A stretch of 64,000 nucleotides of DNA. Source: an uncultured delta proteobacterium (lineage in GTDB: Bacteria > Desulfobacterota > Desulfobaccia > Desulfobaccales > 0-14-0-80-60-11). The position numbers were made by a program. The stretch covers positions 128,001 to 192,000 of the forward strand of contig CAWETI010000002.1 of NCBI GenBank assembly GCA_963812015.1, read 5' to 3'. Numbering within the stretch: the stretch's first letter is position 1; the number at the start of each line of letters is the position of its first letter. This document shows positions 42,001 through 48,000 of the stretch, in pieces.

Positions 42001-45000
42001 TAAGCCTGGCGCCGTTTTTCCCGGTCGAAGGTGTGGCGACCCTCGGCCAACAAGGCGTCCACTTCGGGGTTCTTATAGCCGATGACATTGAGCTCGCCGG
42101 GCTTGGTCTTGGTGGAACTCCAGATGTCGAACTGGTCCGGGTCCAGGCCGGTGTTCCAGCCCAACAGGATCGCCTCGAACCGCCCCTTTTGGATGAATTC
42201 CTTGATGAAGGCGGCCCACTCTACGGTGCGGATCTTCACCACGATACCGATCTGCCGCAGACGGCGCTGGATGATTTCGGCGGTGCGCTGCCGGATGTCG
42301 TTGCCCTGGTTGGTGAGGATGGTGAACTCAAAGGGGCGGCCGTCTTTAGTGAGGATCCCCTCGGCATTAGGCTGCCAGCCGACTGCGGCCAGGAGGGCCT
42401 TGGCCCTGGCCGGATCGTAGGCAAATTTGGGCACGTCGGGATTGTAGTACCAGATGCCGGGCTTATAAGGACCATAGGCTTCCTCGCCCAGGCCCATGAG
42501 CACTCCCTCGATGATCTCCTTTTTGTTGATGGCCAGGGTCATGGCCTGGCGCACCCGCCGGTCGGCGAACCGCGAATCGTTCAGGTTGTATCCCAGATAG
42601 ATGTAAGAGAAGGGCATGTAGCGATACTTTTTAAACAGACGATGGAACTTGGGATACTCCGTCTGCCGGGAATATTGCAGGGGGGCGAGGTTCATGCGGT
42701 CGAGGTTGCCGGCCTTCAACTCCAGAAACATGGTGGCCAGGTCGGGCTTCACCAGATAGAGGTAGCCGTTGAGATAGGGGCGGCCTTCGAAGTAGTTGGG
42801 GTTGTAAGCCAGGGCGATCTTCTCTCCGGCCCGCCACTCCTTGAAGATATAGGGGCCGGTGCCGACCGGGTGCCGCCCCAGGGGGGACTTGGTGATGTCC
42901 TGGCCCGCTAACAGGTGCTGGGGCAGGATGGACAGGCCCCAGGAGCCCAGGGCGGGGGCGAAGGGCTGGGGATAGGTGACCCGGAAGGTATAGTCGTCCG
43001 GGGCCTCAGCCTTTTTCACCTGGAGATAGTCTCCGGAATAGGCGGTGGGGGTTTTGGGGTCCACCATCACCTGGTAGGTGAACAACACGTCTTTGGCCGT
43101 GAAGGGGGCGCCGTCGTGCCATTTGACCCCATGGCGCAGGTGGAAGGTGATGGTGAGCCCGTCCGGGGAGATGTCCCAGCTCTCGGCCAGGTCTCCCACC
43201 AGGTTGAGGTCGCCGTCATATTTGACCAGACCGTTGTAGATCAGGCCGATGATGCTGGCCGAGGACGAATCCATGGCCAGGGGCGGGATTAAGGTGCTGG
43301 CGTCGCCGATGGAGGCGTCAAGAAAGAGGTCGCCGTAAGCCGGGCCGGTGTCCGGGCCGCCGTAGATCGGTTCGTCTTTCTCGGACTTGCAGCCGGCGGA
43401 TAGCAGGGCGAAGACGATCAGGCAGATGATGAGATATCGCCAATCGAGATACGGCGACTGGCTGATTCGGGTTGACCTGATGGTGCGGCATGCGGGAAGC
43501 CTCCCCCTCCCCTCGGTGGGAGGGGGTTGGGGGGAGGGGGATTCTTTCTTCAGACAATTCCATGCCAATTTTGTTTCACCCCCACCCTGACTCTCCCCCA
43601 TCCAGGGGGAGGGAATGGTCACGTTGTCTTTTCTCTTGCCCCGGCTGTCGGTTTTGGATACATTTAACAAGTCGGGACGTGGCTCAGCCTGGTAGAGCAC
43701 AGCGTTCGGGACGCTGGGGTCGGAGGTTCAAATCCTCTCGTCCCGACCATCTTCCCGGGGCGGTAAGCAAAAAATTACCACTCAATCCTCCCTGAAACCA
43801 GCTTTTTCCCCCAGCCGGAGCCTTCATCTCAGAATATCCTGTTTCATCCGCTCGAACTCGTCTTGGCTGATCTCCCCTTTGGCATAGCGCTTTTTCAGGA
43901 TATCCAGGGCGGTCTCGTTCTCAGGACCGGGGCCGGGTGGCCAGGTGCGACCGGAGCGATTGCGGCCGAAGATGCGGTAGAGGACGAAGATAATGACCCC
44001 GAGCCAGAAGATGGGCATGATGATGGGGAAGAACCACAGGTGCCATTGCCAGTAATGTTCGGGGTACATGACTGACCTCTTATGGCCACAGGCGAGACGC
44101 CTATGCTACCATTCTTAAAGGGTTGGGAGGGGGTGCGGGGGAGGGCAGGGACTCGCGTCCCTGGCCCTTCCCCGCAATCACCCTGATCTTCCCCTCAACT
44201 CCGCCGGCGCCAGCGGGGGCCCCCGGGGGAATCGGTGATATCGATGCCCCGGGCGGCCAGTTCATTCCGGATCTGATCCGCGGTCTGCCAGTCCCGGCCC
44301 CTCCGGGCCTCTTCCCGGGCCCGCAGCGCCGCCTCGATGGTCTCATCCCCGGCCTCCGCCGCCGGCGCCAGGTTCATGATCCCCAAGACTTCGTCCAGTT
44401 CCTGGAAGCGGGCCAGGATGGCGGCCGCGCCGGCATGCCCCAGCTGGCCGTGGTCGAGGTCGGTGTGAAATTCCCCCACCGCCCCAAAGAGGGCCGACAG
44501 GGCCCGGGAGATGTTGAGGTCGTCGTCCAGGGCGGTGATAAACTCTTTTTTCAGCAGGAAGAGACGTTCTTCCACGGCCGGGGTGACGGGGGCCTCGCCG
44601 GTTGCCAGGGCGAGGCGTTCCAGGAAGTGGTCCAGGCGGGCCCGGGCCACGGCTGCGGCCTTGAGGTTGGTGTCGCTGAGGGCCAGGGGCTTGCGGTAGT
44701 GGGCCGCCAGCAGGAAGTGGCGCACCTCTTCCCCCTGGTAGCCCTGGGACATCAGGTCCCGCACCGTCACGACGCCCGCCTCTTTCAAGGGCCGGCCGTC
44801 CCTCAGGACCCGCTCGCAGTGGAGCCAGACGTTGGCCATGGGTTTGCCCGTGGCCGCGGTGAAGATGGCGTTTTCGTTCTCATCGTGGGGAAAGAGCGAT
44901 TCCACGCTGCCCACGTGGAAATCCACGGAGGTGCCCGGGTGTTTCAGGGCCATGGCGGCGGACTCCAGGTGCCAGCTGGGGCGCACCTGACCCCAGGGGG

Positions 45001-48000
45001 TGGTGTAGTAGAGCCCTTTTTTCAGTTCCGCCAGCTTGGCGCGTTTCAACAGGGTGAAATCCCGGGGATTGTCCTTGGCGTACTCGTCCAGGTCCACGGT
45101 TTTGCCCACCCGGATCTTGCTCAGGTCCACCCCGGAGAGACGCCCGTAGTCCTTGAAGCGGGAGATGTCGAAATAAACGGAGCGCAGTTTTTCATAGGCG
45201 TAGCCCCGCTCCAGGAGCTTCCGGGTGAGGTCGACCATGTCGTCGATGTGTTCGGACGCCAGGGGATAGAGGACGCCCCCCTGGAGGCGCAGGTCTTCGG
45301 CGTCCCGGAAGAATTCCTGCCGGAAGTGCCCGGTGAAGGCTGCCAAGTCCTGGCCCGCGGCCGCGGCCCCGGCCAGGGCCCGGTCGTCCAGGTCGATGAG
45401 GCTCACCACCTGGCGGACCTTGAAGCCCCGGAAGTTGAGGTAGCGGTGGAGCAGGTCGGCCACCACCAGGCGGCGGGCCACCCCCAGGGAGAGATGGCCG
45501 TAGAGGGCCGGACCGTCGGCGAAAATCGCAGCCTCACCAACGCGCCGGGGCTCGAAGGCCTCCTTGCTCCGGGCCAGGGTGTTGTAAAAGCGGAGGGTGG
45601 GGGCCTCCTTTTCGGTGAACAGGGTAGTGGAGAGGTAGCGTTCGCCGCCATCAGGGGCGATAACCACGATGAGGCCGCTTTCTAACTCCCGGGCCTTGCG
45701 GATGGCCACGGCCACCGCGGCGCCGGAGCTCATGCCCAGGAACAGGCCTTCCTGGCGGGCCAGGCGCCGTGCGGTCTCGTAACCCTCTTCGTCCTCGATG
45801 TTGACAATCTCGTCGGCCTTGGTCTTGTCGAAGATCCCCGGCTTATAGGACTCCTTCATATTTTTCAGGCCCTGGAGGGCATGGCCCAGGAACGGCTCCA
45901 CGCCCACGATGCGGATGTCGGCATTGAACCGCTTCATGCCCGCATACAGGCCCATGAGGGTGCCGGTGGTGCCCATGGTGGCCACCACCATGGTGACCTT
46001 GCCTTCGGTCTGGTCCCAGATCTCCCGGCAGGTGGACTCGTGGGACCGGGGGTTGACGGGGTTGTTGAACTGGTCCGCCAGGAAATACTTGTCCGGATGT
46101 TCCCGGGCCATCCGGTAGACCTCTTCGATGGCGCCGTCGGTGCCCAGGTGGGCCGGGGTCAGGAGGAGTTCAGCCCCCATGCCCTTGAGGATGCGTTTCC
46201 GCTCCAGGCTGGCGGACTCGGGCATGGTCAGGAGCAGGCGGTAGCCCTTGACCGCGCAGACCATGGCCAGACCGATGCCGGTATTGCCGCTGGTGGCCTC
46301 GATGATGGTCTTCTCCGGGGTCAGTTCCCCGGAGGCTTCCGCGGCCTCGATCATGGCCAGGGCCGGGCGATCCTTGACGGAGCCCCCAGGATTGAAATAC
46401 TCCAGTTTGAGGTAAATCTTCACCTGGGGATGGGGGTTGAGACGGTTCAGGCGGACAATGGGGGTCTGCCCGACGAGCTCCAGTATGTTATTGGCCTTGC
46501 GTGACATAGCGGCATCCAAACTCCTGGCTTTGGCGGTGAAGCAAAGGATTAAGCCCCTTCCTCCTTACCCGTGGCGCCGCACTCCTCCTGGTTCTCCATT
46601 TCTTCGGCCAGGTAATTATTGATCAGGTTAATCAGGGTGAGGACGAAAAACCGGCGGGCCTCGGGCTCGTCATGCATCACTTCCATGAGGCGGTAAACCA
46701 GGGACAGGACTACCAGCCCCGCCTGGGAAGGTGACACATCTTCCTGGTTGAAGCGCTCCAGAATCTCATTCACCAGGGGACGGACGCTCTCCTCCAACGC
46801 GGCATCGCTGGTGAAGGCGGCGGTATCGATTTTGGTCATGGCTTGATCCTTGGGGTTTCCTAAAACTCTTTAATTATAAGGAAAAACCTACCATATTCCC
46901 CGGCGGTTTGCAAACTTCGGGGGCAGGGTCCGGCGCGGGAAGCCGGGGCAGAGGGCGCAGGGCGAGGACCACCCACCTGCCAGACCGGCCAGGGGCCAAA
47001 ATGCTGTTTAATTTTCCCGCCAGGACGTTTATCAATCTTTACCCGCGTTCATAAAAAAATAATGCAAGTTAAATAATAAGAGCCTTAATTAATTAGATTA
47101 ATGTGAACAATTCTCTCAATGGTACGGTCTTTGCTTTTATTAATAACGTGAGTCGCGCCCGGTGGGGCGCCTGGCTGTCTGTCACGAAACCGGAACGACC
47201 ACAATGCTTTTGCGAGCCCCCCAATTGATCATGTTGAGGTTTGATGATGAAAGATAAATCGGACACCCCCCCGAGTTTTCTCAAGATGGAGCAGGCCCGG
47301 AAGTTGATGGATCAAGGTCATCATCATGAGTCCCTGGTCCTGGCTTTGGAGGTGCTGCTACAAGAATTGGACTCCCTGCGGGATTCTCTCCTGGCCCTGC
47401 AGATGGCGACCCGGTCGGAATACCAGACCTTTACCCCAGATATCCCGGAAGAACATCCCCAACCCGACCATTACTGGCTGCCGGCAGTCAAACCTCGAGT
47501 TTTGCATTGAGTCAGGGCAGTGATCACGGCTCTTGCGCCTGCCTCGGCCAAGCTCCCGCCCCGGATTATTTTCAAGAAAATAGGACTGTTGCTCTCCCCC
47601 GGGAGGCGCCTCGGGGTTAGTTGATGGTCGGGGCCACCGCGGCGGGGGGAACAGCCCCGGACCGCCGGCATGGCCAGGCCGCCCCACCCGGATCACGGGA
47701 GCCGGTACCACCCGCCTTATCAGGCCAGCATCACCCTGCAAGGGATGGCGGGGCTCTGAACTCCTCTCAGTGCCGCGGGCTCCGGAGATTGCCTCCCGCT
47801 TCCCTTTTTGTTAAACTAAAACGGCCTGCCGTTCCTGTCGGGGCGGAAGGCCTAATTTCTTTTCGGGACCCCTGGCCTTGTCTCCTGATCTCGAGAAACT
47901 CCGCATTCAACGCCCGGAGGGAGAGCGCCCAGTGGCGTCCTCCTCCCGAAGCCGGATTATCATCATGGTCCTGGGGGCAGCCCTCTTGGGCTTCGTAGGG

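Follow-up and report, generated by a model that had tools for sequence, protein, structure and literature searches.

A CysM-type cysteine synthase fused to a cysteinyl-tRNA synthetase paralogue with a predicted noncharging active site

The fusion gene P0001 occupies positions 44195..46507 (stop codon included) on the reverse strand of the window, the whole 64,000-nucleotide stretch of an uncultured delta proteobacterium that was analysed here. Its product has 770 residues counted from an ATG, which lies inside a 774-residue reading frame opening at TTG. Pfam searches again find the domain order given in an earlier note on this DNA: PALP (residues 9 to 286, 2.4e-71), tRNA-synt_1e (320 to 618, 4.4e-63), DALR_2 (655 to 711), and CysS_C (721 to 767). 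The protein is thus a cysteine synthase, called CysK in that note, joined with essentially no linker to a full-length cysteinyl-tRNA synthetase (CysRS) body. A strong hairpin directly past the stop codon (44119..44190, reverse strand; -51.4 kcal/mol, z -4.0) is likely the transcript end. A 96-residue open reading frame of no known family, located 42 bases upstream (46549..46839, reverse strand), is conserved in place in 13 of the 15 Desulfobaccales fusion loci and is a possible partner of the fusion protein. Comparison of the fusion loci across families revealed no pathway genes conserved nearby, and a riboswitch was not found at P0001.

The synthase domain comprises residues 1 to 300 (45608..46507; this and all further features are on the reverse strand). 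It scores above the cut-off of the NCBIfam cysKM model (362.6 versus 344.15 bits) and below those of two curated cysM equivalog models (354.8 versus 394.2 and 327.9 versus 413). The PLP-binding lysine motif SVKDR (residues 43 to 47; 46367..46381) and the substrate-carboxylate loop TSGNTG (residues 72 to 77; 46277..46294) are both intact, and they appear as S[VI]KDR and [TS]SGNTG in all 70 aligned fusions (15 from Desulfobaccales and 55 others). Active-site segment 7, QGLKNMKES (residues 212 to 220; 45848..45874), is of the CysM type, with K215 aligning with R210 of Escherichia coli CysM. K215 and N216 are found in 70 of 70 fusions, whereas 19 of 19 CysK proteins linked to serine acetyltransferase (SAT) have the small GAGF form; the use of this segment to tell CysM from CysK follows the interpretation in a portion of PMC9547175. 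The nearest solved relatives of the domain are O-acetylserine enzymes, and the O-phosphoserine sulfhydrylase of Mycobacterium tuberculosis is absent from the 9 matches to the segment-7 region. By its motifs, this half looks like an active CysM-type PLP-dependent cysteine synthase.

The CysRS half aligns over its whole length with E. coli CysRS (1li5; E value of 9e-74) and shares 31.9% identity over 498 columns with the genome's own CysRS, matching the 32% reported before. In both alignments, the charging site of the catalytic-fold domain (residues 305 to 620; 44648..45595) is remodelled, as previously claimed. HIGH, which reads HLGH in the genome's own CysRS, is replaced by SLGV (residues 340 to 343; 45479..45490), and KMSKS is replaced by PLKEA (residues 573 to 577; 44777..44791). 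Two of the four Zn ligands are changed, C28 to D331 (45515..45517) and C209 to S516 (44960..44962), and H234 and E238 are kept as H541 and E545; T68 has become I371 and H235 has become D542. The protein scores 296.8 bits with the NCBIfam cysS model, below its cut-off of 340. With neither ATP motif left and two Zn cysteines replaced, the second half of P0001 cannot be a normal CysRS. The Desulfobaccales version is predicted to have lost ATP binding, together with half of the zinc/cysteine site, and hence would not charge tRNA.

In a phylogenetic tree, the fused halves are separated from 40 canonical CysRS with 98 to 99% branch support, and they share changes at the canonical invariants W487, W501, G508, and Q548 as well as at the second KMSKS lysine, which is missing in 70 of 70. 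The CysRS half belongs to an old paralogue clade that exists almost only as this fusion. Motif counts bear out the graded decay described in the earlier note, the aminoacylation site being more heavily remodelled in Desulfobaccales than in the other fusions. In the former, a carboxylate residue stands at the C28 position throughout (14 with D, 1 with E), and at the C209 position 5 of the 15 have S and the other 10 have C. The 55 others retain C28 in 51, C209 in 52, and W205 in 49 cases, and the complete C-C-H-E set is present in 43. Of these 55 proteins, 23 keep KMS and the first His of HIGH, and 21 of the 23 have all four Zn ligands. This last group fits the proposed descent from a bifunctional enzyme that made cysteine and loaded it onto tRNA; the universal loss of the second KMSKS lysine, the changes at the four other invariants, and the presence of another CysRS (at least two CysRS-family matches) in 157 of 160 fusion carriers speak against it. 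P0125, in which a synthase is fused to a fully canonical CysRS, is an independent fusion event and was rejected as an ancestor of the clade.

The anticodon-binding domains DALR_2 and CysS_C (residues 655 to 767; 44207..44545) show a different pattern. Residues R735, W740, D744, and R747 (44267..44305) correspond to R427, W432, D436, and R439 of E. coli CysRS, which are located at the tRNA(Cys) anticodon according to the part of PMC13449415 that deals with them. Each is kept in 66 to 69 of the 70 fused halves: all four in 15 of 15 Desulfobaccales proteins and, among the 55 others, R735 in 51 (plus 3 with K), an aromatic residue at W740 in 54, D744 in 54, and R747 in 54. Across 69 fused halves, just 32 of 470 positions never vary, R731, D744, R747, and D759 among them. 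The most decayed relatives (P0126, P0127, and P0129) have lost every active-site residue and keep the anticodon-reading positions. Within the genus (four genomes), dN/dS is 0.04 to 0.12 for the CysM part, 0.11 to 0.22 for the CysRS-like catalytic part, and 0.21 to 0.35 for the anticodon part, versus 0.06 to 0.115 and 0.12 to 0.33 for the housekeeping CysRS of these genomes. The CysRS half is still under purifying selection, and the constraint on its anticodon domain is similar to that seen in the housekeeping enzyme. Given these retained residues and the purifying selection on much of the remaining tRNA-facing scaffold, the half most likely still binds tRNA(Cys).

Genome searches agree with the earlier note that P0001 is the sole cysteine synthase of its genome, and every figure of that note that was recomputed here was reproduced. 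Neither the cysKM profile nor a PALP search finds a further CysK or CysM, the four other PALP genes encoding IlvA, ThrC, a TrpB-like protein, and TrpB. One separate canonical CysRS is present (541.9 bits). SepRS and SepCysS were searched for and not found, and neither was a SAT homologue, the best cysE matches (24.8 and 24.4 bits) being GlmU and LpxD; a nonhomologous serine acetyltransferase may exist. The genome has a second tRNA-Cys gene, which is unlinked to the presence of the fusion (two matches in 15 of 160 carriers versus 12 of 241 other genomes).

Of 401 genomes sampled from the phylum, 160 carry the fusion, extending the 14 of 40 counted previously, and the CysRS half of about 470 residues is kept at full length in all 160, with no stops. 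One match that had been described as ending at residue 589 has no true end there: the frame changes, and residues 588 to 768 follow directly in another frame. The fusion is the only cysKM match in 79 carriers, 77 of which have no SAT-like match; the other 81 have an extra cysKM match, accompanied by a SAT-like match in 74, and canonical CysE scores above the cut-off in 3 of 160 carriers versus 83 of 241 noncarriers, all in cross-tables of related, non-independent genomes that overstate significance. In the seven cases checked, the SAT gene lies near a stand-alone CysK. SAT is gained or lost together with CysK within single families (at least five), and the fusion persists. Since SAT is nearly always missing where the fusion is the sole synthase and mostly present where there is an extra one, the fused synthase seems not to need it.

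Tentatively, and at somewhat less than an even chance, we favor the reading that the CysRS half binds tRNA(Cys) without charging it and acts as a regulatory arm of a cysteine synthase that does not depend on SAT. The CysM-type half would make cysteine without SAT, so its serine-derived substrate is probably not O-acetylserine from CysE; O-phosphoserine might be the most plausible alternative, although the sequence gives it no support. The arm would bind tRNA(Cys), might discriminate between its charged and uncharged forms, and might thereby tune the fused synthase, providing a SAT-less pathway with the feedback that SAT and the CysE-CysK complex supply elsewhere. Of the sensing roles proposed in the earlier note, tRNA(Cys) binding is thus the best reading, in view of the anticodon-contact residues, and the sensing of the charging state would be a further conjecture. 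This arrangement suggests that the supply of cysteine is tied directly to tRNA(Cys), a connection not studied so far; no paper on the family was found in the literature.

The absence of catalytic motifs, the lack of a linker, the absence of conserved partner genes across families, and a dN/dS above that of the CysM half would all suit an inert relic or scaffold that binds no ligand and is kept for folding, solubility, or oligomer assembly of the synthase. However, a scaffold has no need for anticodon-contacting surface residues, which are among the few invariants even in the most decayed relatives, nor does it fit the CysRS-like constraint on the anticodon domain or the retention of about 470 residues in 160 genomes, and this explanation is unlikely. 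The same residues are left unexplained if the old amino-acid pocket binds cysteine (or a metal or thiol) and feeds back on the synthase in the manner of HisZ, with no involvement of tRNA. Most fusions outside Desulfobaccales do keep the Zn/cysteine site, SAT, the usual cysteine-inhibited step, is absent from half of the carriers, and the carboxylate that Desulfobaccales have in place of C28 could still hold a metal. Yet in P0001 itself D331, S516, and I371 alter the site, which weakens the cysteine-sensing arm of the earlier note and makes such a sensor quite unlikely.

A still less probable scheme has the arm bring tRNA(Cys) or aminoacyl-tRNA(Cys) to the PLP site, for conversion of Ser- or phosphoseryl-tRNA to Cys-tRNA, persulfide formation, or delivery of cysteine to the charging machinery. 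A beta-replacement PLP enzyme fused without a linker to a putative tRNA(Cys)-binding module, in a pathway lacking SAT, would formally parallel SepCysS. Nevertheless, the genome lacks SepRS and SepCysS, no enzyme mischarging tRNA(Cys) was found in it, the invariant TSGNTG loop, which accommodates a free alpha-carboxylate, fits a free amino acid as the substrate, and the canonical CysRS needs free cysteine. Finally, many relatives are named "cysteinyl-tRNA synthetase" or "cysteine--tRNA ligase" in databases, and the fold and domain order of P0001 are complete; with the charging motifs absent, two Zn cysteines as well as T68 altered, a score below the cysS cut-off, and a canonical CysRS in the same genome, a working second CysRS is highly improbable.

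The synthase half shares its PLP lysine motif and TSGNTG loop with CysM (E. coli 2bhs and 2v03, Salmonella 2jc3), aligns with it without gaps across segment 7, including the three-residue insertion and the basic residue, and likewise lacks the CysK loop SPVLSGGxPGP. In contrast to CysM, which has GIRRW at this place, the fusions carry their own invariant QGLKN(M)KES, a CysRS-like protein is attached, and the fusion occurs without any SAT in 77 of 160 carriers. Canonical class I CysRS (E. coli CysS 1li5 and 1u0b; 8qhp) matches P0001 in fold and domain order along the full length, and the two have the anticodon-contact residues and many invariant scaffold positions in common, but canonical CysRS has HIGH, KMSKS, C28, C209, and T68, where P0001 lacks both motifs and has D, S, and I. 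The tie of a cysteine route to tRNA(Cys) in SepRS-SepCysS (part of PMC5424206) and the use of O-phosphoserine by a CysM homologue in M. tuberculosis CysM-CysO (part of PMC9547175) are precedents for cysteine made without SAT, as proposed for P0001. The genes of the former are nevertheless absent from this genome, and the synthase domain shows no particular closeness to the latter enzyme. MshC is the ATP-dependent cysteine ligase of mycothiol synthesis and, as P0001 probably does, it serves cysteine metabolism instead of translation with a CysRS-derived protein; P0001 lacks the ATP motifs and scores 130 bits with the MshC model (cut-off, 485.1). In GCN2, a HisRS-like domain without charging activity binds uncharged tRNA and is tied to the enzyme it controls, and in HisZ-HisG a synthetase paralogue renders an enzyme of amino-acid biosynthesis sensitive to the end product. 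The logic of P0001 might be akin to theirs, the shared idea being a noncharging synthetase paralogue physically tied to an enzyme, with regulation by its arm conjectural. The synthetase class and the partner enzyme of P0001 are different, its anticodon domain is still complete, and the enzyme attached to the paralogue catalyses the final step of the pathway.

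The fusion gene (positions 44195 to 46507, reverse strand) is a single open frame that encodes 770 residues from an ATG codon. Pfam searches place a PALP domain at residues 9 to 286 of the product, P0001, followed by the tRNA-synt_1e (residues 320 to 618), DALR_2 (residues 655 to 711), and CysS_C (residues 721 to 767) domains. An intact-looking CysM-type enzyme is joined, without a linker, to the body of a cysteinyl-tRNA synthetase (CysRS). In NCBIfam comparisons, the first 300 residues score 362.6 bits against the cysKM model TIGR01136 (cut-off, 344.15 bits; 366 bits in the genome search) and stay below the cut-offs of the curated CysM equivalogs (354.8 versus 394.2 bits for TIGR01138 and 327.9 versus 413 bits for NF008735). 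The fused synthase forms a separate, CysM-like subfamily. The fusion also misses the cut-off of the cysS model TIGR00435 (296.8 to 298.7 versus 340 bits) and that of the MshC model TIGR03447 (130 versus 485.1 bits), and the ATP-dependent ligase motifs are gone too. Every detail of an earlier note on this gene that was re-run proved correct. The stop codon is followed at once by a very stable G+C-rich hairpin (positions 44119 to 44190, -51.4 kcal/mol), and a tRNA-Pro(CGG) gene lies downstream on the opposite strand (positions 43673 to 43749, forward).

Textbook bacterial cysteine synthesis combines CysE with CysK or CysM and is controlled at CysE. The genome under study (G000; 3.96 Mb in 6 contigs, 99.86% complete), which the source names of its closest homologues assign to Desulfobaccales, encodes five PALP proteins, namely, the fusion, IlvA, ThrC, a TrpB-like protein, and TrpB. 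In searches for serine acetyltransferase (SAT), the cysE model gives its two best scores, 24.8 and 24.4 bits, to GlmU and LpxD, and tblastn with the SAT proteins of two congeners, G009 and G051, finds no match in G000. On the basis of these PALP, cysE, and tblastn searches, the fusion is the sole recognisable cysteine synthase of G000, with no SAT feeding it, just as the earlier note had claimed; the lack of a SAT match leaves this genome with no evident source of O-acetylserine. SepRS and SepCysS of the tRNA-dependent cysteine route are absent from G000 as well, their top matches reaching 24.6 bits (cut-off, 380.65) and 36 bits (cut-off, 365.25), respectively. A single canonical CysRS is present (541.9 bits). 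In G009 and G051 (loci L092 and L091), an EpsC-type SAT (151.5 bits, cut-off 150) directly adjoins a stand-alone CysK; the SAT gene is missing from G000 and G397, a pattern suggesting that the classical pathway was recently gained or lost inside a single genus.

The wider distribution was traced in 401 genomes spread evenly over the phylum. A fusion-length match, 42 to 90% identical and free of stops, is found in 160 of them, representing 98 of the 254 genera. A separate locus scan, for which CysM motifs served as the key, yielded plain CysM genes for the most part and only 13 loci of fusion length; the names in it place the fusion in Desulfobacterales, Desulfobulbaceae, Desulfovibrionales, and others. 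When the cysS family search is cross-read with the table of carriers, at least two CysRS-family matches are seen in 157 of the 160 carriers, the other three being G087 (62% complete), G158 (95%), and G362 (97%). With another CysRS in nearly every carrier, the fusion is therefore no substitute for the housekeeping enzyme. The idea that it is itself a working CysRS is scarcely credible. In six carriers (G041, G071, G145, G147, G264, and G390), the best CysRS-family match lies at E = 1e-113 to 1e-134 instead of the usual 1e-160 to 1e-180, and their housekeeping CysRS may be divergent or fragmentary.

Some loci deviate in their reading frames. At L077 (G170, contig C12) and on contig C318 of G191, the frames that contain the fusion span 1403 and 1181 residues and stay open far upstream of the CysM start, which could mean either a longer fusion or just an open frame. 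In the closed genome G016 (L052, contig C1, locus around 4767 to 4773), a match that the earlier note had described as ending at residue 589 does break there, but it is not an end: residues 588 to 768 continue directly in another frame. A frameshift, an error in sequencing, or a split gene may lie behind this change.

The cysE and cysKM families were searched in the same 401 genomes and cross-tabulated, with E <= 1e-35 taken as SAT-like; no P value is given for the table because related genomes are not independent. The fusion is the only cysKM match in 79 of the 160 carriers, and 77 of these 79 have no SAT-like match (the exceptions are G225 and G296). Among the 81 carriers with an extra cysKM match, 74 have a SAT-like match. 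As for the other seven, four (G137, G168, G228, and G257) have a second match just under the cut-off, the extra match in G205 and G223 consists of contig-end pieces of the fusion, and that in G322 consists of broken pieces. Canonical CysE above its cut-off occurs in 3 of the 160 carriers versus 83 of the 241 non-carriers. In each case checked (G009, G051, G300, G145, G105, G170, and G034), no more than about 2 kb separates the SAT gene from the stand-alone CysK. This SAT-CysK pair varies within single families (f1, f17, f35, f59, f72, f32, and f98), the fusion being constant. By these family counts, the fusion is the sole cysteine synthase, and appears to be SAT independent, in half of its carriers.

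The synthase half retains the residues expected of an active enzyme of the CysM type. The PLP-lysine motif SVKDR (residues 43 to 47 in P0001) and the substrate loop TSGNTG (residues 72 to 77) are invariant in all 70 collected fusions. Active-site segment 7 aligns without gaps to that of E. coli CysM (2bhs), with K215 opposite R210, and carries the three-residue insertion and the basic residue of CysM rather than the small G-A-G of CysK. All 70 fusions have QGLKN(M)KES in this segment (LKN in 70/70) and lack the ten-residue CysK loop, unlike the SAT-linked stand-alone CysK proteins, which have QGI-GAGF in 19 of 19 cases (20 were fetched and 1, with no clean frame, was dropped). A review (PMC9547175) states that segment 7 of CysM widens the active site, that its arginine binds larger anionic donors, and that Mycobacterium tuberculosis CysM uses O-phosphoserine. 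From the missing SAT alone we infer that O-phosphoserine might be the substrate of the fused synthase. In G000, the serC_1 model has only one weak match, at 37 bits, to an aminotransferase of the aspartate/serine-glyoxylate type, and the serB model has weak HAD matches. A special closeness to the M. tuberculosis enzyme was considered and rejected, the fused domain being no nearer in sequence to mycobacterial CysM than to ordinary CysM. A resemblance between segment 7 and the O-phosphoserine sulfhydrylase of M. tuberculosis found no support either: the structure of the latter, 3dki, comes about 21st when a stand-alone relative of the LRN type is the query and is absent among the 9 matches of a 58-residue segment 7 query.

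The second half of P0001 is 31.9% identical to the CysRS of the same genome over 498 columns, and alignment to that protein and to E. coli CysRS (1li5) bears out the earlier statement of 32% identity with loss of HIGH, KMSKS, and two zinc cysteines. Specifically, C28, T68, and C209 (E. coli numbering) correspond to D331, I371, and S516, the HIGH position reads SLGV (residues 340 to 343), and the KMSKS position reads PLKEA (residues 573 to 577), so that neither ATP signature is present. The zinc ligands of the E. coli enzyme, which we take to be C28, C209, H234, and E238, are reduced to two of four, with H541 (H234) and E545 (E238) kept and D331 and S516 changed.

Across the clade, 70 fused halves from about 45 families were compared with 40 diverse canonical CysRS sequences, in which 79 columns are at least 90% conserved. 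The canonical residue is found in none of the 70 at three positions (W487, replaced by L/F; G508, by V/I; and Q548, by I/L/M), the second lysine of KMSKS is never K (0/70; it is R in 23 of the 55 sequences from outside Desulfobaccales), and W501 is retained in 3 of the 70. Outside Desulfobaccales, the amino acid site is mostly kept (C28 in 51/55, C209 in 52/55, and W205 in 49/55). The first His of HIGH together with KMS persists in 23 of these 55, 21 of which also have the full C-C-H-E zinc set; in the remaining 32, at least one of the two ATP signatures is gone. In Desulfobaccales, both signatures are lost in 15 of 15 sequences and the pocket has been rebuilt in a conserved manner: C28 has given way to D in 14 sequences and to E in 1, S or T stands in place of the first His of HIGH, and further replacements are T68 by I (14/15), N369 by S (13/15), and K573 by P (12/15). 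C209 is still C in 10 of the 15 and is S in the other five (the genus of P0001 and one neighbor). The graded decay proposed in the earlier note is evident in this series, from sequences with the HIGH His and KMS down to those that have lost both ATP signatures, and Desulfobaccales represent a second wave of active-site decay.

In a FastTree phylogeny (local supports), the 40 canonical CysRS sequences fall on one side of a branch (support 99) and 69 fused halves on the other (support 98), the latter joined by 8 of 9 shorter database proteins, several of them fragments. The Desulfobaccales sequences come out as a single clade (support 100), whose sister is a small group that has likewise lost the zinc cysteines. 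The tree fits one old origin of the CysRS paralogue followed by stepwise decay. The 768-residue protein P0125 has all the canonical CysRS invariants (HIGN, KMSKS, and all zinc ligands) and nests among the canonical enzymes, and its CysM half is of the same LKN type as in the other fusions. P0125 is an independent fusion and probably bifunctional.

The anticodon face of the CysRS-like half tells of retention. R427, W432, D436, and R439 of E. coli CysRS bind the anticodon, R427 by a hydrogen bond to G34 (PMC13449415). With its DALR_2 and CysS_C domains, P0001 has the equivalents of these G34-C35-A36 contacts in R735, W740, D744, and R747. All four are kept in 15 of 15 Desulfobaccales fusions and nearly always in the other 55 (R735 in 51, with K in 3 more; D744 and R747 in 54 each; and an aromatic residue at W740 in 54). 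R731, D744, R747, and D759 are among the 32 of 470 positions that are invariant in 69 fused halves, and the very divergent P0126, P0127, and P0129 have kept the anticodon positions, with none of the examined active-site residues left. For six pairs among four genomes of the genus, dN/dS is 0.04 to 0.12 for the CysM part, 0.11 to 0.22 for the CysRS-like catalytic part, and 0.21 to 0.35 for the anticodon part; the control, the housekeeping CysRS of the same genomes, gives 0.06 to 0.115 and 0.12 to 0.33. On these values, the dead half is not drifting, and the constraint on its anticodon domain is about as tight as in the essential CysRS. This pattern suggests that the arm likely still binds tRNA(Cys), and it very probably does not charge it. 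That a half without ATP signatures persists as an inert scaffold seems unlikely next to this constraint.

A sensor of cysteine or a metal, with no part for tRNA, we consider quite unlikely; other lineages, with their mostly complete zinc and amino acid sites, would suit that role better than P0001 does. Chemistry on tRNA-bound substrates, for which an intact synthase beside a probable tRNA-binding arm leaves room, is judged improbable. We tentatively prefer, at slightly below an even chance, a non-charging, tRNA(Cys)-binding arm that regulates a SAT-independent synthase: occupancy of the arm by tRNA(Cys) would tune the fused synthase and so might supply the control provided elsewhere by SAT. 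A bolder version, which we regard as doubtful, makes the fusion a bacterial enzyme-level sensor, in which uncharged tRNA(Cys), its anticodon read by the dead arm, directly switches an O-phosphoserine-using, acetyltransferase-free synthase. Were the bolder version true, about 40% of the sampled Thermodesulfobacteriota would set their cysteine supply by tRNA(Cys) occupancy and not by CysE-CysK feedback, and the rebuilt Desulfobaccales pocket, with its lineage-specific upstream partner of 96 residues, would take the design one step further.

This upstream frame (positions 46549 to 46839, reverse strand) starts the list of genomic leads. It precedes the fusion by 42 bases, shares its strand, occupies the same place in 13 of the 15 Desulfobaccales fusion loci, is confined to the clade with the remodelled pocket, and has a conserved, helical-looking core (…RPLVNEIL.RFN…EAG.V.LAL..RLM…). 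It matches no Pfam family, and the closest clusters in the ESM Atlas consist of unnamed proteins from Thermodesulfobacteriota. No operon partner is conserved across families in 70 loci, where the neighbors are housekeeping genes that differ by family (Tmk, SurE, MurJ, nucleotidyl transferase, SIS, DUF3786, and lyase) and, the 96-residue frame excepted, give no hint of a pathway. A search of positions 43500 to 48000 for a riboswitch or T-box leader, at E values up to 1, found none, and promoter and terminator scans stayed at chance level. In four wetland RNA libraries, contigs 95 to 99% alike span both halves and the 96-residue frame, with 19 to 27 of 30 bins covered; they are no proof of transcription, because they come from relatives and the libraries may hold DNA.

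G000 has two tRNA-Cys(GCA) genes outside the window (C2:1262187-1262261, forward, and C3:882330-882404, reverse), identical at 65 of 75 positions, which share the acceptor stem and U73 and diverge in the anticodon stem and the variable loop. A single copy is usual for the tRNAs of this genome. A dedicated second tRNA(Cys) was rejected: with at most two candidates scored per genome, two matches occur in 15 of 160 carriers versus 12 of 241 non-carriers, and each of the three congeners has a single one. ARAGORN also calls a tRNA-like gene of 96 bases (C3:1704362-1704457, reverse, outside the window), whose anticodon has four bases (ggtg) and to which no amino acid is assigned, and a tRNA-SeC gene lies at C4:18351-18448.

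Searches of the open literature aimed at a CysK/CysM-CysRS fusion found no description of one, and the available portions of PMC2922099, PMC8762117, and PMC5424206 make no mention of one. In 77 of the 401 sampled genomes of sulfate reducers, there is no CysE and no free CysK or CysM, only the fusion; cysteine synthesis and its control therefore run in an unstudied way in a large group of environmental importance. Database names such as "cysteine--tRNA ligase" and plain "cysteine synthase" both mislead pathway reconstruction. The survey yields natural intermediates, whose active sites range from nearly intact to wholly decayed, for a study of how a synthetase is retired, and direct tRNA sensing by a metabolic enzyme could be tested with one recombinant protein.

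The fusion would be a clean bacterial example of a synthetase paralogue retained to recognise tRNA rather than to charge it. With pseudo-synthetase regulators, such as HisZ and GCN2, it shares, as far as its motifs indicate, a motif-less synthetase paralogue physically joined to a candidate regulated enzyme. It does not belong to the same sequence family as the HisRS-like domain of GCN2 or the HisZ-HisG pair but would work like these, sharing the proposed control logic.
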